A stretch of 64,000 bases of DNA. Origin: an uncultured Acidobacteriota bacterium. Its GTDB lineage: Bacteria > Acidobacteriota > Thermoanaerobaculia > UBA5066. The notes under the pieces were generated by a model, which saw only the letters and a program-made list of their open reading frames with translations, had not been told where the DNA came from and made no database searches. Positions 175 to 28,052 of this stretch are shown piece after piece; positions within the stretch are counted from its first letter, which is position 1, and every line of letters begins with the position of its first letter. The stretch is from assembly GCA_963836285.1 (NCBI GenBank), contig CAWIIN010000002.1:2016021-2080020 (forward strand), read 5' to 3'. The translations under genes and the position numbers were made by a program.

Positions 175-285
175 CGGTCGCGGAGTTTACGGGAAGCGAC
201 CGGCCCTCCGCTGGCGCGCCGCAGGCGCGCGAGATAGAGTCTCGCGAGAGCGAGAACCGAAGGAAGAGCAAGGAGATTTCTGCGA

Positions 286-1062
286 ATGAATAAGACGTTT
301 TTCCGAGCCTTCGGCGCGCTGGGCGTCGCGGCGGCATTCGTTTGCGCCGCGCCCTCCGCCCATTCATCTTCCAGGAAGAAAACGCCGACTCCCGCCGCCG
401 AGACGGCGTCCACGAAGACTGCCTCGTCCGACAAGGCCAAGACCGAGAAGGTCAACCTGAACACGGCCGACGAGAAGAACATCGCCGCCGCCAAGGGTGT
501 CGGCGCGAAGCTCGCGAAGGCGCTCGTGGCGGGCCGCCCCTACAAGACGTGGGACGACGTCTCGAAGGTCAAGGGCGTCGGCACGGGCAAGAAGCTCGAC
601 GCGCTCCGAAAGGTCCTGAAGCTCACGGAAGGGGTCGCCGCAAAGGACGAGACGGCCACGGAGACGAAGGCGAAGGGAAGGAAATCGAAGAGTTCTTCGA
701 AGGTGAAAGAGGCGGCGGCGTCCGCGGGGGGTGGCGCGGCGGCCGGTGACGCCGCTACGGGAAGCTCCGCCACCACGGACAGGGCGGCGGCATCGCCTTC
801 GCCCTCTTCACCCTCTAAGAGATCTTCCGCTTCCTCCTCTTCTTCTTCCGAGAAGCTCGCCCCCGGGACGAAGATCAACATCAACACGGCGTCCGCCGAG
901 GAGCTCGACAAGCTGCCCGAGATCGGCCCCGTGAAGGCGCAGGCGATCGTCGACTACCGCAAGGCCAACGGCCCCTTCGCGTCGCCCGAGGACATCGAGA
1001 AGGTCAGAGGCATCAAGGCGGGGACGTTCTCGAAGATCAGGGACTACATCGTCGTCCGGTGA
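286..1062 (+). CDS. comEA: ComEA-like helix-hairpin-helix DNA-binding protein with two HhH modules and a signal peptide
   Basis: KVNLNTA...KGVG and KININTASAEELDKLPEIGPVKAQAIVDYRKANGPFASPEDIEKVRGI, separated by a Ser/Ala/Lys-rich linker. Confidence 0.85.
   Translation: MNKTFFRAFGALGVAAAFVCAAPSAHSSSRKKTPTPAAETASTKTASSDKAKTEKVNLNTADEKNIAAAKGVGAKLAKALVAGRPYKTWDDVSKVKGVGTGKKLDALRKVLKLTEGVAAKDETATETKAKGRKSKSSSKVKEAAASAGGGAAAGDAATGSSATTDRAAASPSPSSPSKRSSASSSSSSEKLAPGTKININTASAEELDKLPEIGPVKAQAIVDYRKANGPFASPEDIEKVRGIKAGTFSKIRDYIVVR
687..828. repeat. Imperfect palindromic repeat, copy inside the comEA linker
   Basis: Left arm GAAGAGTTCTTCGAAGGTGAAAGAGG (687-712); right arm CCTCTTCACCCTCTAAGAGATCTTC (~803-827). 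Matches the arms at 3.56, 22.6, 23.2 and 27.1 kb. Confidence 0.65.
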
Positions 1063-1075
1063 GGGGGAGCCTGCC

Positions 1076-1486
1076 ATGGGCCTGATCGATGACGTCCTCA
1101 GGGGAGTGAGCGGAGCGTCCGGCGGCGCCGTGGACCCGTCGCACCACAGCCTCGCGACCGAGCTCATGGGCATCCTCTCGGGCGACGGGACGTCGAAGGG
1201 CCTCGGCGGGCTCGTCGAGATGTTCAACGAGAAGGGCCTCGGGGACGTCGTGAGCTCGTGGGTGTCCACGGGGAGGAACCTCCCGATCTCGGCGGAGCAG
1301 ATCCAGGCCGTGCTCGGAAGCGCGCAGGTTCAGGCCCTCGCGGCGAAGGCGGGGATCGATCCCTCGGCCGCGCGTGCGGCGATCGCCCGGATCCTCCCGC
1401 AGCTCGTGGACCGCTGCACGCCGAACGGCCAGATACCGGCCAGCGGCATCCTCGACACGATTTCGGGGTTCCTCCGGAAGACCTGA
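1076..1486 (+). CDS. YidB/DUF937-family protein
   Basis: GLGGLVEMFNEKGLGDVVSSWVSTGRNLPISAEQIQAVLG...LPQLVDRCTPNG pattern. Confidence 0.85.
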   Translation: MGLIDDVLRGVSGASGGAVDPSHHSLATELMGILSGDGTSKGLGGLVEMFNEKGLGDVVSSWVSTGRNLPISAEQIQAVLGSAQVQALAAKAGIDPSAARAAIARILPQLVDRCTPNGQIPASGILDTISGFLRKT

Positions 1487-1489
1487 AGC

Positions 1490-2113
1490 CTAGAACGTCC
1501 TCGAATACACGTACGTGAAGGCGGACACCTTGCACCGGCGCACGGGCGGCTGGAACTTCACGGTCATGACCTCTGCCTTGACGGCCTCGGCACGCTCCTC
1601 GGACCCCGTCTCGTTCGTGACGACGCGGACGGTCTTCACGGCGCCCGACTCGTCGATGTCCGCCTCCACGACGACCTTACCCTTCGGTCCGGGCGCGTCG
1701 CTCATCCGGAGCATCGGGGGCTCGAGCAGGACTTCCTTGCGGTCCGGGAGACAGCCGTCGTCCTTCCGGAGGAGGTCCTTCCGGATCCACCCGGTGCGTG
1801 TGTCGGGGAGCCTCACGCGAACCCATCCCTCCCTTTCTTCGAATGACGTCAGGCGGGAGCCCTTCGTCGCCTTCGCAACCGTCCTGGCCCTCGTCGACGG
1901 CGTATCCCGCACGTTCACCGTTCTCGGAACGATCCAGGGGACCTCCACGGCCTGAGGAGCGGGCGGCTCCTCGGCGGCCTGCGCGGGCTCCGGAGCCGGA
2001 GCCGGCGGCGGCGCCGAGGCGCAGCCGCCCAGTCCGGCGAGAAGGGCAAGGGCGGCGGCGGCCGCGCCGACGCGCCGCGCGACCTCGGCGATGCGCGGAT
2101 CCTGGAGACGCAT
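1490..2113 (-). CDS. Lipoprotein with a bacterial SH3 domain and TonB C-terminal-like domain
   Basis: C-terminal 208 codons of ORF 1490..3643: lipobox LAGLGGC, SH3 (VNVRDTPS...GWVRVRLPDTRTGWI), TonB_C-like (GKVVVEADIDESGAVKTVRV). ATG at 2113. Confidence 0.75.
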   Translation of the reverse strand: MRLQDPRIAEVARRVGAAAAALALLAGLGGCASAPPPAPAPEPAQAAEEPPAPQAVEVPWIVPRTVNVRDTPSTRARTVAKATKGSRLTSFEEREGWVRVRLPDTRTGWIRKDLLRKDDGCLPDRKEVLLEPPMLRMSDAPGPKGKVVVEADIDESGAVKTVRVVTNETGSEERAEAVKAEVMTVKFQPPVRRCKVSAFTYVYSRTF

Positions 2114-2158
2114 CCGCGGATCGTACCGCGGCGCCGCGAGCGGTACGATCCGCGCTCC

Positions 2159-3532
2159 ATGTCCGTGAGAGTCTCGATCCACAAGTTCGGCGGCACCTCG
2201 CTCGGCGACGCCGACCGCATCCGCAACGCCGCCCGCCTCCTCGCCGCTGCGCGGAAGAGAGGCCGTGTCGTCGCCGTCGCGTCCGCGATGGGTGGCGTGA
2301 CGGACGTCCTCCTCGCGGCCGCCCGCGAGGCCGAGCGGGGGCGCGGCGGGCCCGCCCGCGCCGCCGTCGAGACGCTGCGCGAGCGCCACGCGTCCGCGGC
2401 GCTCGCGCTCGGCGTGCGCTTCGACGCCGGGCCCCTCCGCGAGCTCTCTGCCGTTCTCGAAGGGGTCGCCCTCCTCCGCGAGCGGACCGCGCGCGTCACG
2501 GACCTCGTCTCCTCCTTCGGCGAGCGGCTCTCGGCGCCGCTCCTCGCCGCGACGCTCGTGAAGGCGGGGGTCCCGGCGCGCGCCGTGGACGCCCGCGAGC
2601 TGCTCGTGACGGACGATCGCCACGGTGCCGCGACGTGCGACCGCGCGAAGAGCGACCCGCGCGTACGGCGCCGCCTGCGGCCGCTCCTTTCGGGCGGCGT
2701 CCTGCCCGTCGTGACGGGTTTCATCGCGAGGAGCGCACAGGGCGAGACGACGACGCTCGGCCGCTCCGGCTCCGACACGACGGCCGCGCTCCTCGGCGCG
2801 GCGCTCGCGGCGAAGGAGGTCGTGATCTGGACCGATGTGGACGGCGTCCTCTCGGCGGACCCGCGCCTCGTGCCGGGCGCGAGGCTGCTCCGGCGCCTCT
2901 CCTACCGCGAGGCCGCGGAGATGACGTACTTCGGAGCGAAGGTCCTCCATTTCCCCGCGGTGCTGCCGGCGATCGCCGAGGGGATCCCGCTCGTGATCCG
3001 CAACTCGTTCCGGCCGGAACGGCCCGGCACGACGATCGCGGCCAAGGGGGACGGGGCCCGCGGGGTCCGCGCGGTGACGGCGATCTCCGGGATGTGCCTG
3101 CTCTCGCTCGACGGGAAGGGCATGACCGGAATTCCCGGCATCGCCGCGCGCGTCTTCGGGGCGACGGCGCGGCTCGGCGTCTCGGTCGTCATGTTCTCGC
3201 AGGCTTCGTCGGAGCAGAACATCGCGCTCGTCATCCCCGAGGGCGACCGCGCGCGCACGGTCGCGGCCCTCGAGCAGGAATTCCGGTTCGAGCGGCTCAC
3301 CGGCGGAATCGACGCCGTCACCGCGCGCACCCCGATCGCGGTCGTCGCCGCCGTCGGAGACGGTATGCGCGGGACGCCCGGAATCGCCGCGAAGGTCTTC
3401 GCGGCGGTCGCGCGGGCGAGCGTCAACGTCGAGGCGATTGCGCAGGGAAGCTCCGAGTGCAACATTAGTTTTGCGGTGGCGGGACAGGACCGGGAGATGG
3501 CCGTGAAGGCCCTCCATCGCGTGGTCGTGTGA
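2159..3532 (+). CDS. Aspartate kinase with two ACT domains and no fused homoserine dehydrogenase
   Basis: HKFGGTS, SFGERLS, TTTLGRSGSDTTA, IWTDVDGV, SYREAAEM, QGSSECNIS. Confidence 0.95.
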   Translation: MSVRVSIHKFGGTSLGDADRIRNAARLLAAARKRGRVVAVASAMGGVTDVLLAAAREAERGRGGPARAAVETLRERHASAALALGVRFDAGPLRELSAVLEGVALLRERTARVTDLVSSFGERLSAPLLAATLVKAGVPARAVDARELLVTDDRHGAATCDRAKSDPRVRRRLRPLLSGGVLPVVTGFIARSAQGETTTLGRSGSDTTAALLGAALAAKEVVIWTDVDGVLSADPRLVPGARLLRRLSYREAAEMTYFGAKVLHFPAVLPAIAEGIPLVIRNSFRPERPGTTIAAKGDGARGVRAVTAISGMCLLSLDGKGMTGIPGIAARVFGATARLGVSVVMFSQASSEQNIALVIPEGDRARTVAALEQEFRFERLTGGIDAVTARTPIAVVAAVGDGMRGTPGIAAKVFAAVARASVNVEAIAQGSSECNISFAVAGQDREMAVKALHRVVV

Positions 3533-4632
3533 GCCGCGCCCGCATGGAAGAAGAAGAAGAGAAGAAGAATCTCCTAGAAGGTAAGAGGGGCCGGGAGAGG
3601 GATCGGTCCACTCCGCGCGGGGCGCGCCCCGTGCGCTCTTCACCTTCTCAGAAAATCTTCTCTGCCTCTTCTGCTCTTTCTTCTTTTTCCGCTTCCGTCA
3701 CCGTCTTCGCCCCCGCGTCCGTCGCGAACTTCGGCGTCGGGTACGACGTCCTCGGCGCCGCGCTCGACGGGCCGGGCGACGTCGTCCGCGCCCGCCTGAC
3801 CCGCGAGCCGGGCGTGCGGCTCCTCGCCGTCACGGGCGACGGTGGGCGGCTGCCGCGCTCGGCGCGCCGCAACACGGCCGCCGTCGCCGCCGCCGCGGTC
3901 CTCGGGGGCGCGGGGGAGCGGCGCCGGGGCATCGAGTTGACGCTCGAAAAAGGCCTCCCGCTCTCGAGCGGCATGGGCTCGTCCGCGTCCTCGGCGGCGG
4001 CGGGCGCGCTCGCGGCGGGCCTTCTCCTGGGAATCACCGACCGCGCGTCGCTCCTGCGGCCCGCGCTTCTCGGCGAGCACGTCGCGGACGGCGCCTGGCA
4101 CGGCGACAACGTCTTCGCCTCTCTCCTCGGCGGCCTCGTCCTCGTGCCGTCCTCCGATCCCGAGGGGCCGCTGTCTCCGCTCCGGCTCCGGGTGCCGACG
4201 CGTCTGCGCCTCGTCCTCGTGCACCCCGCCCTCGAGCTCCCCACGCGCCGCGCCCGGGCCGTCGTGCCGCGCTCCGTGCCGATGGCGAGCCACTCCGCGC
4301 ACGCCGCGGCTCTCGCGGTCCTCGTGGCCGGCCTCGCGGCGGGCGACCTCGCGCGCGCCGGCCGCGCGCTCCTGGAGGACCGTCTCGTCGACCCCGCGCG
4401 CCTGCCGCTCGTCCCGGGCGCACCCGCCGTGCGCGACGCGATCCTCGGCGCGGGTGCCCACGGGGCCTGCCTCGCGGGCGCCGGCCCGTCGCTCCTCGCG
4501 CTCACGGAGGAGGGACCCGTCCCCGGGCGCATCGCGCGCGCGGCCGAGACCGCCTGGCGGCGCGCGGGGATCACGGCGCGCGCGTCCGTCCACCGCCTCG
4601 ACACGCGGGGCGCGCGCCGCGTCCGCTCATAA
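3529..4632 (+). CDS. thrB: Homoserine kinase with an atypical N-terminal extension
   Basis: APASVANFGVGYDVLG, GHMP motif KGLPLSSGMGSSASS, HGDNV, AGAGPS. GTG start overlaps the aspartate kinase stop (GTGA). Confidence 0.92.
   Translation: MSRARMEEEEEKKNLLEGKRGRERDRSTPRGARPVRSSPSQKIFSASSALSSFSASVTVFAPASVANFGVGYDVLGAALDGPGDVVRARLTREPGVRLLAVTGDGGRLPRSARRNTAAVAAAAVLGGAGERRRGIELTLEKGLPLSSGMGSSASSAAAGALAAGLLLGITDRASLLRPALLGEHVADGAWHGDNVFASLLGGLVLVPSSDPEGPLSPLRLRVPTRLRLVLVHPALELPTRRARAVVPRSVPMASHSAHAAALAVLVAGLAAGDLARAGRALLEDRLVDPARLPLVPGAPAVRDAILGAGAHGACLAGAGPSLLALTEEGPVPGRIARAAETAWRRAGITARASVHRLDTRGARRVRS
3547..3690. repeat. Imperfect palindromic repeat, copy at the thrB 5' end
   Basis: Purine run plus GAAGAATCTCCTAGAAGGTAAGAGG ... 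GCTCTTCACCTTCTCAGAAAATCTTC plus pyrimidine run. Confidence 0.75.
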
Positions 4633-4639
4633 TCGCCCG

Positions 4640-5944
4640 ATGGCCGCCCCGAGAGTCGCCGCCCTCTTTCGCTGCCTCGGGTGCGGAGCGGAGTTCCCTC
4701 TTGTCGAGCCACGAACGGCCTGCGCTTCGTGCGGCGAGCTCCTGGACGTCGTGCCCGACCTCGGGGCCTTCGGATTTTCGGGCGCGGCCTGGCGGGACCT
4801 CTTCGACCGCAGGCGTGCCGCCCCGGCCTCGCCCGAGACGCGCGCGTTCGAGCGGAGCGGCGTGTGGCGCTACCGCGAGCACGTCCTCCCGGGCCTCGAC
4901 ACGGAGGCGCTCGTGAGCAAGCCGGAAGGCGTGACGCGACTCTACGCGGGTGGCGCGCTCGGCGACGAGCTCGGTCTCGCGCGCCTCTTCGTGAAGCACG
5001 AGGGGGAGAATCCGACGCTCTCCTTCAAGGACCGCGGGATGGCGGCGGGCGTCACGTGGGCGAAGGCCTGCGGCTTCCCGGTCGTCGGCTGCGCCTCGAC
5101 GGGCGACACGTCCGCGGCGCTCGCGGCGTACGCCGCCGAGGTCCCGGCCATGCGGGCCGTCGTCCTGCTCCCGCACGCGAAGATCACGGACGAGCAGCTC
5201 TCCCAGGCTCTCGCCTACGGCGCGACGACCCTCGGCCTCGACACGGACTTCGACGGCTGCATGAGGATCGTCGCCGCGCTCGCGGACGAGGGGCGGGTCT
5301 ACCTCCTGAACAGCAAGAACCCCGTGCGCCTCGAGGGGCAGAAGACGATCGGCTTCGAGGCGATCCACGATCTCGGCTGGACGGTGCCGGACTGGTTCGT
5401 CGTGCCCGTGGGCAACGCGGGAAACGTCTCGGCGATCGGAAAGGGCCTGCGCGAGTGGCTCTCGCTCGGCATCCTCGACAAAAAGCCGCGGATCGCGGGC
5501 GTCCAGTCCGACGCCGCGGATCCGTTCTACCTGTCCTACCGGGGCGGATTCGCCGAGCGGGTCACGCGCGTCGCGGGCGACACGGCGGCCTCCGCGATCC
5601 GGATCGGGGCCCCCGTCTCGCATCCGAAGGCGCGCCGCGAGGTCGGCTTCTTCGACGGCGTCGTCGAGCGCGTGACCGAGGCCGAGCTGCTCGACGCGTT
5701 CGCCCTGGCGAACCGGCACGGCCTCGCGATCTGCCCGAACTCCGCCGTGGCGCTCGCGGGCGCTGCAAAACTCCGGAAGGAAGGCGTCATCAAGAAAGGC
5801 GACCTCGTCGTCGTCGTCGCGACGGCGCATGCGCTCAAGTTCTCGGGCGCGATGGCCGCCTATCAGCGGAGCGCGGGCCGCCTGGCGAACCCGCCGCGGC
5901 GCGTTCCCGCGACGCTGGACGCGGTCCGTGCCGCGCTCGTCTGA
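4640..5944 (+). CDS. thrC: Threonine synthase
   Basis: N-terminal Zn-ribbon CxxC pairs, ENPTLSFKDRG (PLP lysine), CASTGDTSAA, RLEGQKT, PVGNAGN. ATG at 4640. Confidence 0.95.
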   Translation: MAAPRVAALFRCLGCGAEFPLVEPRTACASCGELLDVVPDLGAFGFSGAAWRDLFDRRRAAPASPETRAFERSGVWRYREHVLPGLDTEALVSKPEGVTRLYAGGALGDELGLARLFVKHEGENPTLSFKDRGMAAGVTWAKACGFPVVGCASTGDTSAALAAYAAEVPAMRAVVLLPHAKITDEQLSQALAYGATTLGLDTDFDGCMRIVAALADEGRVYLLNSKNPVRLEGQKTIGFEAIHDLGWTVPDWFVVPVGNAGNVSAIGKGLREWLSLGILDKKPRIAGVQSDAADPFYLSYRGGFAERVTRVAGDTAASAIRIGAPVSHPKARREVGFFDGVVERVTEAELLDAFALANRHGLAICPNSAVALAGAAKLRKEGVIKKGDLVVVVATAHALKFSGAMAAYQRSAGRLANPPRRVPATLDAVRAALV

Positions 5945-5954
5945 GCCCGCCGGC

Positions 5955-6683
5955 TCAGCTCCCCGGGGGCTGGTTCTCGTGCGGGCCGCCGCTCCGGATG
6001 AGCATGAGCGTCGTCGTGCCGATCTCGAACTCCGTGCGGCTCTCGAGCTCGGTCCGGCCGACCCGCTGATCGTAGACGTACGTGCCGTTCGTCGAGCCGA
6101 GGTCGACGAGGAACACGTGCTCGTCCTGGACTTCGATCGCGGCGTGCTGGCGCGAGCACTGGATGTCCGAGACGACGATGTCCGCGTTCGCACGGCCGAT
6201 CACGACCCGCGGCTTGTCGATCTCGAAGATGCGGCCCGAATCCGGCCCCGAGATGCACGCGAGGGACAGGCGCACTCCGTCGGGCAGGCGGAGGGGCCGG
6301 GCCATGCTCCGCGTGTTCGGCTGGATCGGTACGCGGTCCGTCGTCCGGGCCTGCCCGCCGGCGGGCGGAGGTCCCGACGGGCCGGCCGTATCACCCGGGT
6401 CGGTGGACGTGAGCATCCCGGACCGCGCGGGCCCTCCGGGAATCTTCCCGGCCTGACGCCTCTTGCTCGCCTCGGTCATGGCCGTCTCGTCCAGCGAGAA
6501 CTCGTCGGGGCCGATCGAATTCGGGCGCGCCGGCACCGTCGCTCCCGGGAACGCCATCGCCGGATTCCGGATCTCGAAGACGTTCGCACACTTCGTGCAC
6601 TTGATGCGTTTCGCGGGGGCGCCGGCGAAACGCGTCTCGTCGTAGTGGTAGCGCGCCTGGCATGCCGTGCACTGGATGATCAC
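5955..6683 (-). CDS. Zinc-ribbon (MJ0042-type) plus FHA domain protein
   Basis: VIIQCTACQARY...IKCTKCANVF and FHA motifs IGR, SRQHA, DLGSTNGT. GTG at 6683. Confidence 0.88.
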   Translation of the reverse strand: MIIQCTACQARYHYDETRFAGAPAKRIKCTKCANVFEIRNPAMAFPGATVPARPNSIGPDEFSLDETAMTEASKRRQAGKIPGGPARSGMLTSTDPGDTAGPSGPPPAGGQARTTDRVPIQPNTRSMARPLRLPDGVRLSLACISGPDSGRIFEIDKPRVVIGRANADIVVSDIQCSRQHAAIEVQDEHVFLVDLGSTNGTYVYDQRVGRTELESRTEFEIGTTTLMLIRSGGPHENQPPGS

Positions 6684-6744
6684 GCGATGGTGCTGTCTCC
6701 GGGCCGATTTTAGCCGGGATTCGCTTGGCGCGCCCGATCGGCGC

Positions 6745-7926
6745 TCAGGAGCGGCTCGCGAGGCGCGTGCGCGCGACCATCCGGGGAATCGTCTCGAGGA
6801 GGCGCTCGACGTCCTTCTCGGAGGTCGCGCGCCCGAACGAGATGCGCAGCGTCGCCTTCGCGTCGGCCGGGGAGAGGCCGAGAGCGAGGAGGACGCGGCT
6901 CGGGGCCGTCGCCCCGGCGTGACAGGCCGAGCCGGCCGAGACGGCGATTCCCTCGAGGTCGAGAGCCGCCACGAGAAGCTCGGCCGGGGCGTCGGGGAAG
7001 ACGACCGACACCGCCGTCGGGAGCCGCGCGCCGTCCGCCGCGTTGATCCTTGCGCCGGGCACCTCCCCGAGGAGGCCCTCCTCGAGCCGGTCCCGCAGGG
7101 CCGCCACCCGCGCGCCCTCGTCGGCGAGCCGCGGGCGGGCGACCCGCGCGGCCTCACCGAGCCCGACGATCGCCGCGACGTTCTCCGTCCCGCCGCGCCG
7201 GCCGCGCTCCTGGCCGCCGCCGGGCGCGAGCGCGAGGATCCGGACCCCCTCCCGGACCCAGAGGGCTCCCGCTCCCTTCGGGCCGCCAAACTTGTGCGCC
7301 GAAAGAGAGAGGAGGTCGACTCCGAGCGCGCACACGTCCACGGGGATCTTGCCGACCGCCTGGACGGCGTCCGTGTGGACGAGAGCCCCCGCCCCGCGGG
7401 CCGGGGCTGCGAACGCGGGAAGGCCGTCGAAGACCGCGCCCGTTTCGTTGTTCGCGAGAACCACCGAGACGAGAGCCGTGCTCGTGCCGGCCGGTGCCGG
7501 CCCTCGTGGAACTCCACGGGAGTTCACCGGGATCTCGGCGACCTCGAAGCCCTCGGATGCGAGCCCGAGCGCCGCTTCGCGGACGGCGGCGTGCTCGGCG
7601 GCCGTGTAGAAGACGCCGAGCCGCGACGCATCCGCCTCGTGCGCCGCGCGGGCGCCCCCGCGCACGGCGAGGCTGTCTGCCTCGGTCCCGCCGCTCGTGA
7701 ACACGACGCCCCTCGGGTCGGCGTTCAGGAGCCGGGCCACCTCCTCGCGCGCCCGCTCGACGGCTGCCCGGGCGGCGCGTCCCGGGCCGTGGACGGACGA
7801 GGGATTCCCGGCGAGGCCGGCGAGCCACGGACGCATCGCCTCGAAGACCGCCGTGTCGAGGTGGGTGGTCGCGTGGTGATCGGCGTAAACCGGAGCGCGC
7901 TCGTCCAGAAAGAGCCTCGGTCGCAT
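6745..7926 (-). CDS. iscS: Cysteine desulfurase, IscS/NifS type
   Basis: YADHHATT, GNPSSVH, FTSGGTE, HTDAVQ, SAHKFGGPKG, SAGSAC (catalytic Cys), LRISFGR. Confidence 0.92.
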   Translation of the reverse strand: MRPRLFLDERAPVYADHHATTHLDTAVFEAMRPWLAGLAGNPSSVHGPGRAARAAVERAREEVARLLNADPRGVVFTSGGTEADSLAVRGGARAAHEADASRLGVFYTAAEHAAVREAALGLASEGFEVAEIPVNSRGVPRGPAPAGTSTALVSVVLANNETGAVFDGLPAFAAPARGAGALVHTDAVQAVGKIPVDVCALGVDLLSLSAHKFGGPKGAGALWVREGVRILALAPGGGQERGRRGGTENVAAIVGLGEAARVARPRLADEGARVAALRDRLEEGLLGEVPGARINAADGARLPTAVSVVFPDAPAELLVAALDLEGIAVSAGSACHAGATAPSRVLLALGLSPADAKATLRISFGRATSEKDVERLLETIPRMVARTRLASRS

Positions 7927-8020
7927 TCTAAGAGGGACGAAACCCAAATTCCCGTCGCCTGCGTACGACGGAGAGGACGGAAGGGGCTGGAATCCCTCTT
8001 GCAGTTATGGTGGCGGGGAG

Positions 8021-18637: not shown

Positions 18638-18692
18638 GCCGCATTATGGTCCCCGGGGCCGGCGCGTGGGGCCTTCGGCTAAGCTCGGCGCC

Positions 18693-19271: not shown

Positions 19272-19755
19272 CGACGGGCATCTCGCCGGACGTGTCGCGG
19301 GCGGCCTGACGGGACATCTGGAGGACCGCCGGGAACACGATGCCCGGGCCCAGGACGCCGGCGCCCACGCGCACCCTGAGGCTCTGGGGCAGGGGGCCCT
19401 TGCCGTCCCGCCAGGGTCGGAACGTGGCGGCGAGGCGCGCGACCTTCACCTTGCAGCCCTCGAGATTCGCCTCGACGAGGAGCGCGATGAACTCGTCCTC
19501 CTCCCAGCGGAAGAGATAGTCCGTGAGCCTCAGGTTCGCCTGGAGCGTGTTCGCGAGAGTGTGGACGGCGCTTTCGAGCGCCGCCGGAGGCATGGATGCC
19601 GCGAACTCGGCCCAGTTTACGAGGACGATCGAGAGAATGGACAGGACCGAGCCGTGCCGCTTGGACCGTTCGACCTCCCGGTCGACGATCTCGTCGAAGA
19701 AGGCGCGGCTGTAGGCTCCCGACTGCGGATCGCGGATCGGAAACGAAGCGCTCAC
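19261..19755 (-). CDS. Stand-alone degenerate GGDEF-domain protein
   Basis: RDPQSGAYSRAFFDEIVDREVERSKRHG...NLRLTDYLFRWEEDEFIALL (EEDEF in place of GGDEF). Confidence 0.75.
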   Translation of the reverse strand: MSASFPIRDPQSGAYSRAFFDEIVDREVERSKRHGSVLSILSIVLVNWAEFAASMPPAALESAVHTLANTLQANLRLTDYLFRWEEDEFIALLVEANLEGCKVKVARLAATFRPWRDGKGPLPQSLRVRVGAGVLGPGIVFPAVLQMSRQAARDTSGEMPVVRV

Positions 19756-19816
19756 CGTCCCTCCGGTCCCGCCAGTGTATCGCGGGAGGAGGCGGTCTGT
19801 CGTACGCTGTCGGCAT

Positions 19817-21559
19817 ATGGGGGAACTGACGAAGCCGCTCGCGCTGGCCGATTTCGTCGCGGCGGCCCGGGGCGCCGTCCCGGCCGATCTCGTCCTGAAG
19901 AACGCCCGCGTCGTGAACGTCCTGACCGGGGAGATCCACGACGGGACGGTCGGCGTCAAAGGGGACCGGATCCTCGGCTTCGGCGACTACCGCACGGAAC
20001 GCCCGGAGGACACCGTGGACCTGGGCGGAGGCTACGTCGCCCCCGCGCTCTGGGACGCGCACCTTCACATCGAGTCCACGATGACGACGCCCGGCACGTT
20101 CGCCCGCCTCGCGGCCGCGCACGGGACGGCGGCGGCCGTGACGGACCCGCACGAGATCGCGAACGTCCGCGGAGTGGCCGGCATCCGCGACTTCCTCGCG
20201 GCGGCGGCGCCGCTCCCCGTCGATGTCTTCGTGATGCTTCCGTCGTGCGTCCCGTCGACGCACCTCGAGACGGCCGGCGCCACGCTGTCCGCCGAAGACC
20301 TCGCGCCGCTCTACGCGCTCCCGAACGTCCTCGGCCTTGCGGAGATGATGAACGTTCCGGGGTTTCTCTTCGGCGACCCGGGCGTCGTCGCGAAGGTCGA
20401 GGACGCGCGGAGGCGGCGCGTGCCGATGGACGGGCACTCGCCGCTCCTCTCCGGCCTCGACCTGAACGCGTACGTCGGCGCCGGCATCCGCTCGGACCAC
20501 GAGTGCCTCTCGCGGGCCGAGGCGCACGAGAAGGTACGTCTCGGGATGGACATCTGGATCCGCGAGGGCACGGCCGCGAAGAATCTCGACGATCTCCTGC
20601 CGCTCGTGACGGCCGCGAACTCCGAGCGCTTCGCGTTCGCGACGGACGACCGGCACCCTTGGGATCTCCTCCGACACGGCCACCTCGACCACCACGTGCG
20701 GCGCGCGATCGCACTCGGGCTCGACCCCGTTCTCGCGCTGCGTCTCGCGTCCTGGTCCTGCGCCCGGCACTACGGCTTTACGGATCGCGGGGCGCTGGCC
20801 CCGGGCTTCCGAGCCGACCTCCTCACGTTCGAGCGGCTCGACGACTTCCGACCGGATCTCGTGGTCCTCGGCGGCCGGCGTGTCGCAAAGGGCGGGAAGC
20901 TGCTCGTCGACGTCACGGCTGCGCGCATGGAGGAAGGTCCGGCGTTCCGGGTCGAAGGCTTCGACCGCACGCGGCTGAGGCTCACGGCCGGGGAGGGCAC
21001 CTCGCTGCGAGTCATCGAGGTCCGCGCGGGCTCGCTCGCCACGGGCGCCTCGACGGAGCGCGCGGCCCTCGCGGGCGGCACCGCCGTGCCGGACGTTTCT
21101 CGCGACCTCCTGAAGCTCGCGGTCGTCGAGAGGCACCGCGGGACTGGCAACGTCGGCGTCGCGTTCGCCCGCGGCTTCGGCCTGAAGAGGGGCGCGGTCG
21201 CCTCGTCGGTCGCGCACGACTCGCACAACGTCGTCGCGGTCGGGGCCGATGACGCGTCCATGGAGACGGCCGTCCGGCGCGTGGCCGAGATCGGTGGCGG
21301 GATCGTCGTCGCAGACGGCGCTCAGGCCCTCGCAGAGGTCGCGCTGCCGGTCGGCGGCCTCATGTCGAACGCCCCCATGGCGGACGTCGACTCCGCCGAG
21401 CGCCGCGCGAACGCGGCCGCCGCGACGCTCGGCGGCACGATGGACCACCCGTTCATGACGCTCGCGTTCCTCGCGCTGCCCGTGATCCCCGATCTCAAGC
21501 TGACGGACAAGGGCCTCGTGGACGTCACGAAGTTCGACTTCGTGGCCCCCGTGGTCTGA
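19817..21559 (+). CDS. ade: Adenine deaminase
   Basis: DAHLHIES, DPHEIANV, LAEMMN, DGHSP, SDHEC, TDDRHP, SVAHDSHN, LALPVIPDLKLTDKG. Confidence 0.96.
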   Translation: MGELTKPLALADFVAAARGAVPADLVLKNARVVNVLTGEIHDGTVGVKGDRILGFGDYRTERPEDTVDLGGGYVAPALWDAHLHIESTMTTPGTFARLAAAHGTAAAVTDPHEIANVRGVAGIRDFLAAAAPLPVDVFVMLPSCVPSTHLETAGATLSAEDLAPLYALPNVLGLAEMMNVPGFLFGDPGVVAKVEDARRRRVPMDGHSPLLSGLDLNAYVGAGIRSDHECLSRAEAHEKVRLGMDIWIREGTAAKNLDDLLPLVTAANSERFAFATDDRHPWDLLRHGHLDHHVRRAIALGLDPVLALRLASWSCARHYGFTDRGALAPGFRADLLTFERLDDFRPDLVVLGGRRVAKGGKLLVDVTAARMEEGPAFRVEGFDRTRLRLTAGEGTSLRVIEVRAGSLATGASTERAALAGGTAVPDVSRDLLKLAVVERHRGTGNVGVAFARGFGLKRGAVASSVAHDSHNVVAVGADDASMETAVRRVAEIGGGIVVADGAQALAEVALPVGGLMSNAPMADVDSAERRANAAAATLGGTMDHPFMTLAFLALPVIPDLKLTDKGLVDVTKFDFVAPVV

Positions 21560-21569
21560 GAGGACGCCC

Positions 21570-22541
21570 GTGATCGTCGACTGCGGCATCTACGACCAGG
21601 GAGTGAGGCGCCCGGGTATCCACACGTTCGCAGAGGCGTTCGAGGCCTCGAAGGTCCCGGGCACGTTCGTCTGGCTGGGCATCCACGAGCCGACCGAGGA
21701 GGAGTTCGCCTCCGTGAGGACCGCGTTCGAGCTCCACGAGCTCGCGGTCGAGGACGCGCTCAAGGCCCACCAGCGCCCCAAGCTCGAGGTCTACGACGAC
21801 ACCCTCTTCGTCGTGATCAAGACGGCGCGCTACGTCGACCGGGAGGAGGCGGTCACGCTCGGGGAGATCCTCCTCTTCGTCGGCGAGCACTTCGTGGTCG
21901 CCGTGCGCCACGGTGAGGCGAGCCCCCTCATCGAGACCCGCAGGAGCATCGAGAAGCGGCCCGAGCTGCTCGCGTGCGGACCGGGCGCCGTCCTCTGGGC
22001 GATCGCCGATCACGTCGTCGACGGCTACCTCCCCGTCCTGCACGGCCTCGAGCTCGACATCGACGAGGTCGAGGACGCGGTGTTCTCCACGAACGAGGAA
22101 AACCCGGCGGAACGGATCTACTTCCTCAAGCGCGAGCTCATGGGGTTCCTGCGGGGAGTACGTCCGCTCCTCGACCCGCTCGACCGACTTGCCCGCGGAA
22201 CGTTCACGCTCCTTCACGAAGACGTGCGCCCGTACTTCCGCGACGTCGACGACCACCTCGTTCGTGTCGTCGAGCAGCTCGAGGGCGACCGCGACCTGCT
22301 CACGAGCATTCTGCAGTCCAACCTGACGCAGCTCTCGATCCGGCAGAACGAAGACATGCGGAAGATCTCCGCGTGGGCCGCGATCTTCGCGGTCCCGACG
22401 ATGATCGCCGGCATCTACGGCATGAATTTCCAGCACATGCCGGAGCTGAAATCCCCCTGGGGATACCCCTTCGCGCTCGGGCTCATGGCCGCCGTGTGTA
22501 CCGGCCTCTGGAAGGCGTTCAAGAAGTCGGGCTGGCTGTAG
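21570..22541 (+). CDS. corA: Magnesium/cobalt transporter CorA
   Basis: HQRPKLE, YFRDVDDH, PTMIAGIYGMNF signature. Confidence 0.95.
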   Translation: MIVDCGIYDQGVRRPGIHTFAEAFEASKVPGTFVWLGIHEPTEEEFASVRTAFELHELAVEDALKAHQRPKLEVYDDTLFVVIKTARYVDREEAVTLGEILLFVGEHFVVAVRHGEASPLIETRRSIEKRPELLACGPGAVLWAIADHVVDGYLPVLHGLELDIDEVEDAVFSTNEENPAERIYFLKRELMGFLRGVRPLLDPLDRLARGTFTLLHEDVRPYFRDVDDHLVRVVEQLEGDRDLLTSILQSNLTQLSIRQNEDMRKISAWAAIFAVPTMIAGIYGMNFQHMPELKSPWGYPFALGLMAAVCTGLWKAFKKSGWL

Positions 22542-22544
22542 GAC

Positions 22545-22737
22545 GAAAAACGAGAGGAAGGGAAGAGGATAGAAAGAAAAAGAGGAAGATTCGGATTTCT
22601 TGGAAGGGTGAGTGAGCGTAGCGCCGCTGCGTGGGGCCGGCGCGAAACGGATCGCCCCGGCCCCTCTCAACCTTCTAAGAAAATCTTCTCTTCTCTTTCT
22701 CTTACCTTCTTCTTCCTGTTCTTCTTCTCTCGTTTTG
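22545..22737. repeat. Longest palindromic repeat copy, between convergent corA and Spy-like genes; may also act as a bidirectional terminator
   Basis: Outer arms AAAACGAGAG / CTCTCGTTTT, purine and pyrimidine tracts, inner arms GATTTCTTGGAAGGGTGAG / CTCAACCTTCTAAGAAAATC. Confidence 0.8.
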
Positions 22738-23220
22738 TCAGTTCGCCGGAGGCGGGCCGCCGAAGCCGCGTATCGCGGCGCGGCGCTGCTGGCGGTGGGC
22801 GGCGACCCAGCCGTCGAGTTTCGCCTTCTGCTCCGGCGTGAGAACCGCGTCGATCTCGGCGCGCACCGCCTTGACCTTCGCGGCAGCCACCCTGGCGTCC
22901 GCGCGCACCTTCAGGAACGCCGATCCCACGGTGGCGGGGTCGGGCGTCTCCGCGGAGGCGGCGGCCTTCAGGGCCGCGCGGTCGGCCTTCATCTGGGCAT
23001 GAAACGCCATCGCCTCGTCCTTGTGGGAGGCGAAGATGGCCTTGACCTGGTCCTGCTGGTCGGCCGAAAGGTCGAGGGTCGCCATCGCGGCGCGGATCCC
23101 GCGGGCGAATCGGCCCGCACCCGGCGCGGGCTGGGCGAGCGCGACGCCCGCCGCGAGCCCGCCGGCGAGAACGAGGGAGGAGATGCCGAAGATTTTCTTT
23201 TGAAAGGAGATAGCGGACAT
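22738..23220 (-). CDS. Spy/CpxP-family periplasmic chaperone
   Basis: Signal peptide, LDLSADQQDQVKAI and VLTPEQKAKL (LTxxQ motifs). Confidence 0.85.
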   Translation of the reverse strand: MSAISFQKKIFGISSLVLAGGLAAGVALAQPAPGAGRFARGIRAAMATLDLSADQQDQVKAIFASHKDEAMAFHAQMKADRAALKAAASAETPDPATVGSAFLKVRADARVAAAKVKAVRAEIDAVLTPEQKAKLDGWVAAHRQQRRAAIRGFGGPPPAN

Positions 23221-23335
23221 TTGTTCGATCCTCCGGGCGGTGTTTCTCGTCCGCCCGCGGGATCAGACGCCGAATGTCGGGCCGGCGTTTACAGATGAGG
23301 GCGTTCCCCTCTTACTTTCAAGGAAAATCCTCTTC
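23188..23335. repeat. Degenerate palindromic repeat copy straddling the Spy-like start codon
   Basis: GAAGATTTTCTTTTGAAAGG (23188) and CCTCTTACTTTCAAGGAAAATCCTC (~23308) are mutually inverted and match the family arms. Confidence 0.55.
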
Positions 23336-23369
23336 GAACCTCGCGTTCCGCCGCGGCCTGCCTCGAGAT

Positions 23370-24101
23370 TCAGAACCTCTCCCCGGCGAGGACGATCGCG
23401 CCCGTGGGGGACGGGACGCCGCCCTTCGGCTCCACCGAGACGGCGAACTTCACGGGCGCCTCGCCGAGCGACTCCTGTCTCGAGATCGGGATCACGGTCG
23501 CCGCGTCGCTCTTCGCGTCGAACGTCCCGGCGGGAACGGGCTGGTCGCCGACGAAGGCCCAGAGTTCGTAGCTCTTCTCGAGCGGGAGCGGAGGCAGGCC
23601 TGAGACCCACAGGATTCCCTGTTTCGTCCCGGGGTTCCAGAGGAGTTTCGCGCGCGCGGCCGCGTTGCCCTCGAGGCCCTTCAGGAGAGCGACCTGAACG
23701 CGCGGGTCCTTGAGCCAGGCGACCTCCTGCGACGCGAGCGCCGCCTGCCGATCGCGCTCCTGGACGGTTGCCTCGAGGCGCGCGACGCTTTCGCGCGCCG
23801 CGGCGAGGTCGGCCCGTGTCGCGTACCACAGGGCGCCGAACGCGGCCGCGAGCATGAACGACGCGGCGACGCCGAGGGCCCAGAACATCGTCGCGAGCCC
23901 GCGATCCGGCCCCGCCGCGGCAATCGCGCGCGCGGCGGCCTCGGCGCCGGGCCCGCGGATCTCCCACAGGACGCGGTCCCTCACGGCGACCGGCGGCTCG
24001 ATCCGCGCGCCGGTCTCGAGCGCGTCGAGCTCGGCCTCGAGAGACTCCGCCCAGAAAGCGGCTTCGTCTGCGGCCCGGGGGGTCGGGCGCTCGTCAGCCA
24101 C
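23370..24101 (-). CDS. Anti-sigma factor, RskA (anti-sigma-K) family
   Basis: EPPVAVRDRVL, a TM helix, LPPLPLEKSYELW, FAVSVEPKGGVPSPTG. Confidence 0.9.
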   Translation of the reverse strand: MADERPTPRAADEAAFWAESLEAELDALETGARIEPPVAVRDRVLWEIRGPGAEAAARAIAAAGPDRGLATMFWALGVAASFMLAAAFGALWYATRADLAAARESVARLEATVQERDRQAALASQEVAWLKDPRVQVALLKGLEGNAAARAKLLWNPGTKQGILWVSGLPPLPLEKSYELWAFVGDQPVPAGTFDAKSDAATVIPISRQESLGEAPVKFAVSVEPKGGVPSPTGAIVLAGERF

Positions 24102-24657
24102 GTCCGGCCTCCTTCTGCGCGGCCGCCGTGATCGTCCGCAGCTTCGAGAGCCCCGAGCGGGTGCGGCTCTTGACGGTCCCGAGGGGCTCGTTCAGGCGAA
24201 GGGAGATCTCCTCCTGGGTCAGCCCCTCGAAGTAGGCGAGGCGCAGCACGGCCTGCTCGTTCTCCCCGAGCCGGGCGAGGGCCCGCTCGACGAAGTCCTT
24301 CACGTCGGCGGTCGCGGCGGCATCCGAGGAGCCGGCGACCTGCTCGAGTACGGGGGTGTCCGCGGCCGTGATTCTCTTTTCGATCGAATGACGGCTCCGC
24401 CAGCGGTCGAGCGCGCGGCTGCGCGCGATCGTGAACAGCCAGCCGCGAACGGACGCGCGAGCCGCGTCGAATCGGCGCGCGTCGCGCCAGGCCTGGACGA
24501 AGGTCTCCTGGAGCACGTCTTCCGCATCCCTCGCGTCCTTCAGGATACGGACGCAGAAGCCGAAAAGGACCGCTGCGTGCTCGTCGTAGAACGCGCCGAA
24601 GGCCTCGCGGTCGCCCGCGACGATGCGCGCGAGGAGATCCGTCCCGGATTCGTCCAC
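24094..24657 (-). CDS. ECF RNA polymerase sigma factor (SigK-like)
   Basis: AEDVLQETF, WLFTIARSRALD, LAYFEGLTQEEI, PLGTVKSR; overlaps the anti-sigma gene. Confidence 0.93.
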   Translation of the reverse strand: MDESGTDLLARIVAGDREAFGAFYDEHAAVLFGFCVRILKDARDAEDVLQETFVQAWRDARRFDAARASVRGWLFTIARSRALDRWRSRHSIEKRITAADTPVLEQVAGSSDAAATADVKDFVERALARLGENEQAVLRLAYFEGLTQEEISLRLNEPLGTVKSRTRSGLSKLRTITAAAQKEAGRG

Positions 24658-24782
24658 GTTCCGGGCCGAGCCTGACGGCGTGCCCCGGGCCTGTCAAGCG
24701 GGAGCCCCGCCCGACATGATTTGACGCCGTCGGGCCGTGCCGCTAGCTTGCGGGAGACGCGCCTCGCGCGCCCGGAGCACGC

Positions 24783-27096
24783 ATGACACGAAAGAAGGTA
24801 GCCGCCTCGGGCGGCCAGCCGCCCCTGCCGTTCGACGCAGAGATTCCCCTGCCGGAGGAAGCCCGGCGGCGATACCTGAACTACGCGCTCTCCGTCATCA
24901 CGTCGCGCGCGCTGCCGGACGTCCGCGACGGCCTCAAGCCCGTCCAGCGCCGGATCCTCTTCGCGATGTTCCAGAACCTCCACCTGACGCCCGACGCGAA
25001 GTTCAAGAAGTCCGCGACGGTCGTCGGCGACGTCATCGGCAAGTACCATCCGCATGGCGACGTCGCGATCTACGACGCGATGGTCCGCATGGCGCAGCCG
25101 TTCTCGCTGCGCGCCCCTCTCGTGGACGGGCACGGCAACTTCGGCTCCCTCGACGGCGACGCGGCGGCCGCGTACCGGTACACGGAAGCGCGCCTCAAGC
25201 CGCTCGCGATCGAGCTGCTTTCCGAGATCCGCAAGAAGACCGTCGACTGGCGGCCGAACTTCGACGGCGTCCACTTCGAGCCGGTCGTCCTGCCGGCGCG
25301 CTTCCCGAACCTCCTCGTGAACGGCGCGACGGGAATCGCGGTCGGCATGGCGACGTCCATCCCGCCGCACAATCCCGTCGAGGTCCTCGACGCGGCCATC
25401 GCGGCGGTGGACGACGCCGACGCGGACCCGCTGAGGCACATCAAGGGCCCGGACTTCCCGACCGGCGGCCTCCTCCTCGGGGGCAAACGCGAGCTGCGCG
25501 CCCTTTACGAGAGCGGCCAGGGCACGCTCAAGCTGCGCGCCGAGTGGGAGGTCGAGGAGGGGCCGCGCGGCGCCCAGACGATCGTCGTCACGTCCATCCC
25601 GTACGCGCAGGAGAAGGCGTCCCTCGTCGCGAAGATCGCGGACGTCATCGTCGAGCGGCGCCTCCCGGTCCTCGTCGACGTCAGGGACGAGTCGACGGAC
25701 GACGTCAGGATCGTCCTCGAGATCAAGCGCGAGACGGATCCTGCGCTCGTCATGACGTATCTCTTCAAGCACACGCCGCTCGAGACGACCGTCCCCGTGA
25801 ACCTCACGTGCCTCGTCCCGACCGCGAAGACGGACGTCTGCGAGCCCGCCCGGCTCCCGCTCAAGGCGATGCTCCGGTATTTCCTCGACTTCCGGCTCGA
25901 GACCGTCAGGCGGCGGTTCACGTTCGACCTCGAGGAGCTGCGGCGCCGCATCCACGTCCTCGAAGGGTTCGTCGTGATCTACGACGCGCTCGACGAGGCG
26001 ATCCGGATCATCCGCAAGTCCGACGGCAAGGCGGACGCGGCCGGAAAGCTCATGAAGCGCTTTGGCCTCGACGAGGAGCAGGTCGAGGCGATCCTCGAGA
26101 CGAAGCTCTACAAGCTCGCGCGGCTCGAGATCGACGCCATCCGCGCCGAGCTCAAGGAGAAGCTCGCCGAGGCCGCGATCATCGAGGCGATCCTGAAGTC
26201 GACGAAGAAGCTGTGGAACGAGGTCCGGGGAGAGCTCGTCGAGGTCCGCGAGACCCTCGCCGGGGAAAAGCGCCGCACGAAGGTGCTCTCGAGCGTCGAC
26301 GAGCCCACGTACGACGCCGAGGCGTTCATCCAGCACGAGGACACGTTCGCCGTCGTGACCGTGGACGGGTGGCTCAAGCGCCTCGCGCCAGCTGAAGGAC
26401 CCGAAAACCACGCGCATGCGCGAGGGCGACGAGGTGCTCGCCGTGCTCCAGGGCTCGACGAAGGAGCCCGGCGTCCTGTTCTCGAACCACGGTGCGGCGT
26501 ACGTCCTGCGCCTGAACGACGTGCCTCCTTCGACAGGCTACGGCGAGCCCGTCCAGAAGCTCTTCAGGTTCGGGGACGGCGAACGCGTCGTCGCGGCGCT
26601 GTCCCTCGACCCGCGCGTCGCGCGGCCGAAGAATCTCACGCTCCTCGCCGTGACGCGGCGCGGTCTCGTCTTCCGCTTTTCCGCGGATCCGTTCCGCGAG
26701 CCGACGACCCGCGCGGGCCGGCGATTCGCGCGGCCCGCGAAGGGCGACGAGGTCGCGCACGTCTTCGTCTGCGAGGTGAAGGACCTCGTCGCGCTCGCGT
26801 CCGAGAGGGGGCGCGCGATCCTGTTCGCGGCGTCCGAGGTCCCGGTCCTCTCGGGACCGGGGAAGGGCGTCCTCGGCTTCAAGCTCGCCCCGGACGACCG
26901 GCTCGTCGGCGCCGCCGTCTTCGGCGAAGACGAGAAGAGGGCGACGCTGACGCTCGTGAACGGCAAGGGCACCGAGCACACCATCACGAAGCGCTACACG
27001 CCCGTCTCACGAGGAGGGAAGGGCTTCGAGCTCATCAAGCGCGACCGCCTCGTGAAGATGCTCCCGCAGGACATCGAGCTGATTCCGTTCGGATGA
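24783..27096 (+). CDS. parC: Type IIA topoisomerase subunit A (ParC/GyrA family), one frameshift near 26385
   Basis: [27 protein letters not shown] active site, [15 protein letters not shown]. Removing one base in CTC-G-CGC-CAG-CTG joins it to ORF 26416..27096 (beta-pinwheel CTD). ParC versus GyrA is inferred from the short CTD. Confidence 0.85.
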
Positions 27097-28052
27097 GACA
27101 ACGTCGCAGAGAGATAAGATCGAAGAGGAGGATTTCTATGAAAGTGAATAGGACAGGGGGAGCGGCCCTCGATTCGAGGCGTCTGCTCGCCGCGTGCGGG
27201 GTCGGCGCCCTCTTCACCTTCACAGGCTCTTTTTCTTCCGCCGCTCCCGTCGAGCTGCCGCGGCCGAGCCCGGCGGCGTCGGTCTTCGAGAAGATCGGGA
27301 CGGCGAAGGTGACCGTCACGTACTCGCGTCCGGGTGTGAAGGGCCGCGAGATCTGGGGCGGCCTCGTTCCCTACGGGCAGGTCTGGCGGCTCGGCGCGAA
27401 CGACGCGACGACGCTCGAGATCTCGGAGGCCGCGAAGATCGCGGGGCACGAACTCCCGGCCGGCGCGTACGCGCTCTTCGCGATCCCCGCGAAGGACAAG
27501 TGGTCGATCGTCGTCAATTCCCAGTCGAAGCAGTGGGGGGCCTACTTCCGGGACCCGAAGAAGGACGTCCTCACGTTCGACGTGACGCCCTCCGCCGGGC
27601 CGCACCAGGAGTGGCTCGAGTTCCGGATGCACCCGGAGTCCGCGCGCGCCGTGAAGGTCGAGATGGCGTGGGAAAAGCTCCGGGTCTCGTTCGACGTCGA
27701 CGTCGACGTGAACGGGATCGTCTGGAAGAACCTCGACGCGGCGCGCGCGGCGGCCGGAGAGAAGGACTACGTCGACTTCTACCAGTCCGCGCGCTTCGCC
27801 CGCGAGACGGGCGAGCACAGGGCCGAGGCGATGGGCTGGCTCGACGAAGGGATGAAGCGCGGGAAGAGCTTCTGGATGGACGAGCTGAAGGGCGACCTCC
27901 TCGCCGACGACGGAAGGTACGCCGAGGCGGCGCCGCACCTCGAGCGCGCGATCGAGGCCTCGAAAAAGGCGGGGGCGCCGGAGGAGTGGCGCGACGGCGC
28001 CAGGAAGAAGCTCGCGGAGTGGGCCGCGAAGGACAAGGCGAAGAAGGGCTGA
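27093..28052 (+). CDS. DUF2911-family protein with C-terminal helical (TPR-like) region
   Basis: PRPSP...[32 protein letters not shown]...[12 protein letters not shown] 27093 overlaps the topoisomerase stop (alternative ATG at 27138). Confidence 0.85.
27108..27240. repeat. Palindromic repeat copy at the DUF2911 gene 5' end
   Basis: GAGGATTTCTATGAAAGTGAATAGG ... CCCTCTTCACCTTCACAGGCTCTTTTTCTTCC. Confidence 0.55.

Follow-up and report, generated by a model that had tools for sequence, protein, structure and literature searches.

A dispersed repeat family in a genus of Acidobacteriota, with conserved inverted arms and unrelated cores

Introduction

Small dispersed palindromes, such as repetitive extragenic palindromes (REP), Rickettsia palindromic elements (RPE) and miniature inverted-repeat transposable elements (MITE), are usually explained by transposition or by a hairpin function. 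RPE copies share a full-length consensus of ~100-150 bp; MITEs such as Correia/NEMIS are small, have terminal inverted repeats of ~26 nt, reach hundreds of copies and occupy gene boundaries. The uptake signal sequences (USS) of Pasteurellaceae and the DNA uptake sequences (DUS) of Neisseriaceae are evenly spread, at a density of ~1 per kb. Passages of Di Nocera et al. (PMC3733652) describe REP dimers that favor one orientation and whose spacers vary in sequence and size, report copies within genes, and also name the RPEs; parts of a second paper (PMC3116915) define REPINs, the REP doublets, by a REP-associated tyrosine transposase (RAYT), a tag, and doublets that are better kept than singlets. 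Here we describe a family of inverted repeats noticed in a 64-kb window (the whole stretch of DNA analysed, G000:C2:2016021-2080020) of the genome of an uncultured Acidobacteriota bacterium. A first-pass annotation of the window took the family for a lineage-specific mobile palindrome that adds peptide segments to proteins, by analogy with RPE and REP/MITE sequences. The analogy holds for the layout, which is that of REP dimers, and for the effect on proteins, which is RPE-like; however, the family fails the tests that define REPINs (RAYT, tag and doublet conservation) and those that define RPEs and MITEs (a shared full-length sequence and a parent element). The reading that we favor, and to which we give about an even chance, is an old REP-dimer/RPE-like family confined to one genus, whose arms are kept by sequence-specific recognition.

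Materials and methods

The genome under study (G000; 3.87 Mb, 70% G+C, three contigs, 92% complete) belongs to a genus of uncultured soil Acidobacteriota. Arms were found with an nhmmer profile built from fuzzy-search matches to a 26-mer, with the reversed genome as control. L and R denote the two orientations of the arm, and a pair is two arms within 400 nt of each other. The nearest relative compared, G006, has ~86% identity to G000; because it is ~14% diverged, recent events are not visible by this comparison. Genes were called with our own codon-bias caller, which is crude and made at least one wrong join (at the DUF2911 gene, window 27138-28052). The classification of copies as insertions or as overlays on native codons covered eight host genes.

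Results

A short arm is repeated throughout the genome, mostly as inverted pairs

Across the whole genome, the arm profile gave 297 matches at E ≤ 0.1 and none in the reversed genome (436 vs. 7 at E ≤ 1). The fuzzy search with the 26-mer located 49, 81, 135 and 202 places at up to 3, 4, 5 and 6 mismatches, respectively, and the reversed pattern matched 0-1 times per genome in sets of 31 and 61 genomes. The repeat family is real and far above chance. The arm consensus is GAAGATTTTCTTAGAAGGTGAAGAGG, preceded by a purine-rich tract (nhmmer profile consensus: aggaagaGaagattttCTTaGAAGGtgaAgaGgGg), with a conserved block of ~28 nt and an arm unit of 26-28 nt. Its inner edge is sharp, GAGG giving way to GC-rich DNA, and its outer edge fades into a purine-rich flank of ~30 nt (purine fraction 0.71-0.73 in the 20 nt preceding the arm). 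The only symmetry within the arm is a small 4+4 dyad, TTCTTAGAA.

Among arm pairs at E ≤ 1, 96 were L..R, compared with 4 R..L, 11 R..R and 1 L..L (35 L..R vs. 1 R..L at E ≤ 0.1), so that the preferred layout is inverted, with the outer ends of the arms facing outward. Overall, arms use the two strands equally (210 vs. 226). Like REP dimers, bacterial interspersed mosaic elements (BIMEs) and REPINs, the family is thus built of short units that may stand alone but chiefly form inverted dimers, in which one orientation prevails. The first-pass annotation is borne out in that the repeat forms a dispersed family, that its layout is palindromic, and that its left flanks are rich in purines and its right flanks in pyrimidines. 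No Rfam family matched at its gathering score over the 64 kb of the window, nor at E ≤ 1 over 1-28 kb.

Arm density is ~1 per 9-13 kb. It reaches ~101 per Mb on the part of the genome with negative GC skew (C1, C3 and C2:0-700 kb) and ~47 per Mb on the positive part, and is lowest to the right of a skew switch near C2:700 kb (region C2:700000-1800000), without strand bias.

The DNA between paired arms is 20-346 nt long (median 76), and resembles the spacers of REP dimers (20-100 bp in the passages cited from PMC3733652 and PMC3116915) in varying in both sequence and size. An all-vs-all comparison of 96 such cores found no two alike, only GC-rich chance matches of 13-21 nt, and aligned views of the copies agreed that the cores share nothing. 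This is unlike RPEs and MITEs: only the 26-28-nt arms are shared here, and there is no common interior. Cores as captured DNA were rejected, since no donor sequence was found elsewhere in the genome, the paralogy of a kinase group (below) excepted. Cores as hairpins were likewise rejected, their mean folding z being −0.05 (34 cores), against 0.02 for random genomic DNA.

The motif follows one lineage

With up to three mismatches allowed, the motif was present in every genome scanned within the genus, first 18 and then 26, at 8-75 matches per genome. One sister genus carried it in five of eight genomes, at 1-4 matches each. It was absent from all 26 genomes of eight other genera of the family and from all 12 of two other families of the order, the latter tally resting partly on two unpublished genomes (G019 and G024). 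Thus, the family is lineage-specific, as first annotated. In a set holding one genome for each of 185,579 species, an exact 22-mer occurred at 78 places, all in metagenome-assembled genomes (MAGs) of Acidobacteriota/Thermoanaerobaculia, and exact copies of the consensus were found in many species. A phage origin is ruled against by the lack of any exact 22-mer match in viral contigs. A literature search, mostly at the level of abstracts, found no description of such a repeat in Thermoanaerobaculia.

Higher conservation in the arms than around them

All 12 sites compared were common to G000 and G006, so no recent insertion was seen. Relative to G006, arm identity exceeded that of the core or inner side at 11 of the 12 sites (~0.90 vs. 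0.75, from a tally of per-site rows); pooled over all species, identity was 0.855 for arms, 0.773 for cores and 0.754 for the inner side of solo arms. Arms keep ~20 of their 26 consensus letters. In mnmA, where two arms lie in coding sequence, third-position G+C (GC3) was 0.53 in the arm codons compared with 0.88 in the rest of the gene. The mean bit score at E ≤ 0.1 was 20.2 for paired arms and 21.4 for solos (p 0.04, solos higher); paired arms are thus no better conserved than solos, the reverse of the REPIN pattern.

Some copies were inserted and other arms replace native codons

Alignment with solved homologues revealed additional residues in several host proteins: ~60 within the RNB domain of RNase R, ~68 in MurE, and ~48 in acyl-CoA synthetase, which also carries a 16-aa solo half-element. 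RsmH had no solved homologue at E ≤ 1e-50. At the ymdB junction (C2:631137), ~170 nt lie where the corresponding genes of G001 and G014 overlap by GTGA. Past insertions are real; present mobility is not supported. Comparison of filled and empty sites (ymdB, e3 and thrB, the last two described below) gave no clear target-site duplication, a possible difference from MITEs; the outer boundary of the element is diffuse.

A second class of arms looks different. In mnmA, 158 nt of conserved coding sequence separate the two arms. Outgroup genes, drawn from sister genera and from another family, are in all 12 cases equal in length at the arm sites but have unrelated codons there. Aligned with the solved MnmA, the L arm showed no gap and the R arm one of 2 aa. 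Within the genus, the L arm is present in eight of ten genomes and the R arm in nine of ten: G009 has neither, and G013 has the R arm with a half-formed L arm. The R arm seems to be the older of the two. Similarly, in nine to ten kinase paralogues the L arm aligns to PknB without a gap, and the R arm with a 6-aa Ser run inserted. Read from these alignments, the arms of mnmA and of the kinases are near-equal-length replacements of native codons, not insertions. In this some arms depart from REPs, as the family does in its purine-rich flanks, and copies that replace native codons depart from RPEs as well.

The group comprises ten Ser/Thr kinases of ~630-926 aa, encoded on the minus strand outside the window (C2:427659-457629 and 495266-497851). 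Their arm-like codons (LPEEFFEGEE ... SFEEIPSSSS) surround the αC-β4 segment, and their Ser runs vary in length.

Copies lie between genes and, in frame, within them

The first-pass annotation described a repeat that sits in frame inside genes, and this holds for part of the family. Genome-wide, 143 of 340 units were intergenic, compared with 8.3% of random intervals; 170 of 340 lay inside genes, a figure that is an upper bound, and 71 lay in frames with coding signal on both sides (two-sided coding test). Units were 2.5-fold rarer between divergent genes (0.17 per kb) than between tandem (0.45) or convergent (0.43) ones. As with REPs, then, units favor extragenic positions, some copies lie inside genes for housekeeping and genome maintenance, and the copy number differs among relatives.

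In 15 of 20 host proteins scanned, Pfam domains spanned the element or flanked it on both sides: a GcvT-like protein, RNase R, NuoG, allantoicase/OHCU decarboxylase, LigD, a class I tRNA synthetase, MurE, a DUF2400 protein, an ABC-F ATPase, acyl-CoA synthetase, an Lhr helicase, a CHAT protein, RsmH, an SH3-NlpC/P60 protein and ComEA. The L arm has a single naturally open frame, read (E)DFLEGEEG and used by 48 of 80 genic L arms; the remaining genic L arms have lost the stop, which is partly a consequence of the gene-calling method. The TAG was intact in 107 of 133 intergenic arms and in 69 of 145 genic ones. In-frame copies add 30-70 residues. The proposed addition of peptide segments is therefore upheld by RNase R, MurE and acyl-CoA synthetase, and also by ComEA, which in G000 is 31 aa longer than in G011, where comEA (L240:252-1022) has only the R arm and a Ser run. 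The family is like RPEs in this respect, being a palindromic repeat found in frame in genuine conserved genes and translated as extra segments, lineage-restricted and old.

The 3' end of the genome's 16S rRNA (C2:1900089-1900119; L237:1495-1525) reads GGATCACCTCCTTTCTAAAGGA. Against it, AGAAGGTGA of the L arm matches a Shine-Dalgarno site almost perfectly, and the R arm resembles the anti-Shine-Dalgarno tail. A role of L arms at Shine-Dalgarno or start sites was rejected, because starts followed 65 of 297 arms and ~82 would follow at random places; the peak of starts at −9 is the arm's own GTG behind its TAG.

Copies in the 64-kb window

Of five copies annotated in the window, e1, e2 and e3 stood as strong members, e4 was marginal and e5 was not confirmed by the profile; nor was a suspected sixth, degenerate copy (Table 1). 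The remark that the 29-58 kb redox region has no copy proved correct, since 28-64 kb has no arm match even at E ≤ 10.

Table 1. Repeat copies annotated in the window, with their profile matches
Copy	Window positions	Strand	Arms (profile E value)	Location and status
e1	660..850		L arm 682-707 (E 0.081), GC-rich core, R arm 801-831 (E 9e-4)	ComEA linker
e2	3544..3692		L arm 3560-3589 (E 0.0085), R arm 3635-3663 (E 6e-6)	aspartate kinase-ThrB junction
e3	22545..22737		R arm 22662-22693 (E 3.5e-6)	fully intergenic, between convergent gene ends 22541 (+) and 22738 (-)
e4	23188..23335		arm-like match 23307-23333 (E 0.62)	marginal; 5' end of Spy-like gene 22738-23220 (-)
e5	27108..27240	+	single arm-like match 27207-27225 (E 3.6, not significant)	doubtful
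possible sixth copy	258..382	+	no profile match at E ≤ 10	comEA ribosome-binding site/signal peptide

Element e1 lies within the comEA open reading frame (286-1062, +), between two helix-hairpin-helix domains (Pfam HHH_3 matched in two stretches, one on either side of it), is translated in frame with a Ser-rich tail, and is kept in six of six relatives compared. Its in-frame status is thus well founded; that of e2 with thrB, claimed alongside it, is plausible from the reading frame. Element e2 is situated between the aspartate kinase stop (3532) and the conserved ThrB start (~3698), and the ATG at 3544 reads through it in frame; the true ThrB start in G000 is uncertain. In G001, the thrB ATG overlaps the stop of the aspartate kinase gene (ask) and the R arm is in frame, and the same junction sequence is found in G002, G031 and G014. 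Because e4 and e5 are weak members, their in-frame status says little.

The ask-thrB site occurs in four states: empty (G010 and G034), R arm only (G001, G002, G014 and G031), full L and R arms (G000 and G006), and R arm with a different long core (G039); it is also occupied in the distant G007 and G012. The thrB R arm is near consensus in nine species with wholly different cores. At both the comEA and the thrB sites, the R arm is present in nearly all species, and the L arm and core in only some.

Element e3 forms a long hairpin of 190 nt (−97.2 kcal/mol; z −7.95 as RNA and −8.3 as DNA), and e2 also folds well as RNA (−71.6 kcal/mol, z −4.2). The left arm of e3 (~22585-22612) has a 5-nt insertion and was not scored by the profile. 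The element is present in G006 and absent in G014, where the site spans 32 nt instead of 237 nt. The cores of e2 and e3 had been thought homologous in opposite orientation, but this finds no support past the ~10 nt adjoining the arm.

The second arm of e4 (23188-23213) was not scored by the profile, and the arm at 23307-23333 is kept in G006 and G014. Element e5 overlaps the ribosome-binding site, the start codon (ATG 27138, read from the sequence) and the signal peptide of the DUF2911 gene.

Discussion

In the account that we favor, at roughly balanced chances, a burst of palindromic insertions would have occurred in the ancestor of the genus, spread by a transposition-like process that has since stopped or nearly so. 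Many copies originated when 110-190 nt were inserted between genes or, in frame, inside them, the latter being translated as Glu/Lys-rich ... Ser-rich loops; other arms formed in place as native codons were substituted. The cores would have decayed freely toward genomic G+C. A trans-acting factor would recognize each arm by its sequence and keep the arms near one consensus across the genus, so that arm retention would be due neither to a need for arms to pair nor to the youth of the copies. We propose, in short, that arms are retained, and occasionally created de novo, because something recognizes their sequence. This three-part account (burst, core decay, and retention or creation of arms) is the simplest fit to the insertions and the constraint.

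The mobile palindrome of the first-pass annotation, in the sense of a MITE or RPE, found no support in that form: only the arms are conserved, the cores have nothing in common, and neither a cognate transposase nor an autonomous copy was found. Several results also weigh against our own account. PF01797 (Y1_Tnp, the RAYT family) had no match in G000, which is 92% complete. It occurs in four of 29 genomes of the genus at one copy each (a 320-aa gene in G039, L206:916-1878, and those at L207, L208 and L209), but none of the four genes is bracketed by arms; one arm match lies ~450 nt from one of them and another ~1.3 kb from a second. The transposase-like content of G000 amounts to one split resolvase frame, one DDE_Tnp_1 and four rve matches over the family cut-off, with no DDE_3; within 3 kb of these loci, arms were absent at five of six and represented by one weak match at the sixth. 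No parent insertion sequence with the same ends was found, again unlike MITEs, and no protein that recognizes the arms was identified. Differing from REPs and REPINs, the profile consensus contains neither a GTAG nor a CGTC tag, and the arm, judged by its sequence, is by itself no stable palindrome or stem-loop. The synonymous third positions of mnmA are no more identical in the arms (0.657) than in the rest of the gene (0.643), so the case for nucleotide constraint there rests on the retained A/T-ending codons. Near-equal-length overlays are explained by no insertion process and fit motif drive at least as well. The relatives in the 12-site comparison are related species and so non-independent, and the crude gene caller makes the counts of copies inside genes upper bounds.

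A search for an autonomous element between distant arms likewise ended in rejection. Among 22 long-range L..R pairs (400-5000 nt), none tightly encloses one gene of transposase size; by Pfam, two single-gene candidates are ETF-alpha and an aminotransferase, and a third pair encloses thrS. The resolvase-like frame (C3:2903-3231) consists of two overlapping pieces, and could reflect a frameshift or an assembly indel.

There is also a bolder reading, which we put forward tentatively and regard as unlikely: the arm may be the recognition sequence of a system that drives or writes a 26-nt motif into the chromosome, in inverted pairs, essential genes included, and with length unchanged. Such a system could be a patch-conversion process directed by a template, or an uptake-signal-like drive, the first known outside Proteobacteria; insertions and in-situ overlays would be two outcomes of one mechanism, and the family would be neither a transposon nor a structural RNA.

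Unlikely too is a rival in which the arm is an uptake-signal-like motif, as are USS and DUS, spread by point substitution and allele replacement rather than by transposition, through molecular drive from preferential uptake or recombination. Overlays and the stepwise mnmA series are what such a drive would produce, as arms would arise in place with little or no length change in conserved genes. Like USS and DUS, the family has one motif throughout the lineage, evenly on both strands; its copies often form inverted pairs between genes, arise in place in tolerated frames, and each match the consensus independently of a partner. The intergenic enrichment coexists with tolerance in permissive frames, such as the open frame of genic L arms, and ComEA, ComEC and DprA are present; competence genes (ComEC, DprA) are, however, near-universal, being found in 10-11 of 14 control genomes. 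Unlike USS and DUS, the arms are sparse, at about a tenth of the density of known uptake signals, and unevenly spread, with a two-fold density difference between genome halves and a copy number that varies from 8 to 75 among congeners. Nor would uptake drive predict clean insertions of 110-190 nt, long purine-rich flanks or the 96:4 orientation bias. The low, uneven density, the flanks and the clean insertions thus weigh against motif drive as the whole story.

The copies might instead be selfish relics of a MITE- or RPE-like burst in the genus ancestor, decaying without function and without a recognizing factor, which we consider unlikely. The demonstrated insertions and the 12 of 12 sites common to G006 suit this reading, as does the lack of young copies: near-perfect arms never stand on both sides of a pair, and each core is unlike the others. 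Losses also occur, since thrB is empty in G010 and G034 while the more distant G007 and G012 are occupied. Passive decay, however, does not sit well with cores that are fully randomized beside arms that keep most of their consensus letters and are better conserved than their neighborhood at 11 of 12 sites. Arms rich in A/T have survived at a genomic G+C of 70%, many species retain exact 26-mers next to degenerate partners, partner arms have decayed without correlation (mismatch counts, r = −0.02), and in-situ arms exist.

An RNA or DNA hairpin that acts in cis (as a bidirectional terminator, mRNA stabilizer or RNase III site), with the stem of arm and flank as the functional part, appears improbable. 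Single elements do fold very well (e2 and e3), units prefer the 3' sides of genes, and the L and R arms resemble the Shine-Dalgarno and anti-Shine-Dalgarno sequences of the genome's own 16S 3' end. Yet partner arms do not covary: the L arm matched the reverse complement of its R arm at 15.49 of 26 positions within pairs and at 15.73 ± 0.15 with shuffled partners, and non-consensus letters were shared by partners no more than across elements (0.36 vs. 0.45). Pair-specific matching was likewise absent from the flanks (z 0.0) and the core ends (z 0.7), and the cores are unstructured. Solo arms are kept no less well than those in pairs, Rfam gave no match at E ≤ 1 over window 1-28 kb, and no excess of start codons follows L arms. 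Finally, that the inverted arms are recombination sites of a master invertase that flips the cores is very improbable: inverted 26-nt arms flank 20-350 nt, some of them within genes, with one consensus at many loci and the small dyad in the arm, but the cores were colinear, with no inversion, at the 12 sites compared in 5-11 species, several cores are essential coding sequence (MnmA, kinases), solo arms are common and well conserved, and the sole resolvase-like frame in the genome is split.

The family fails both usual tests for small dispersed palindromes, in that its cores are unrelated and no transposase was found, and in that its arms do not covary and its solos are kept like pairs. If arms are indeed kept by recognition of their sequence, as we favor, the family offers a natural case in which to ask how sequence recognition by itself could preserve and multiply a long motif. 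It is relevant, too, to repeats that add disordered loops to housekeeping enzymes, here RNase R, MurE, DnaX, LigD and class I tRNA synthetases. In practice, the arm can serve as a marker of the genus; in Thermoanaerobaculia MAGs, both gene calling and the prediction of start codons will be misled by these elements.

An open frame of 1089 aa at window 24783-28052 is an alternative frame of a gyrase/topoisomerase-like gene that runs on into the DUF2911 gene, whose real start is ATG 27138. In this 70% G+C genome such spurious long frames abound, and they misled the gene caller.

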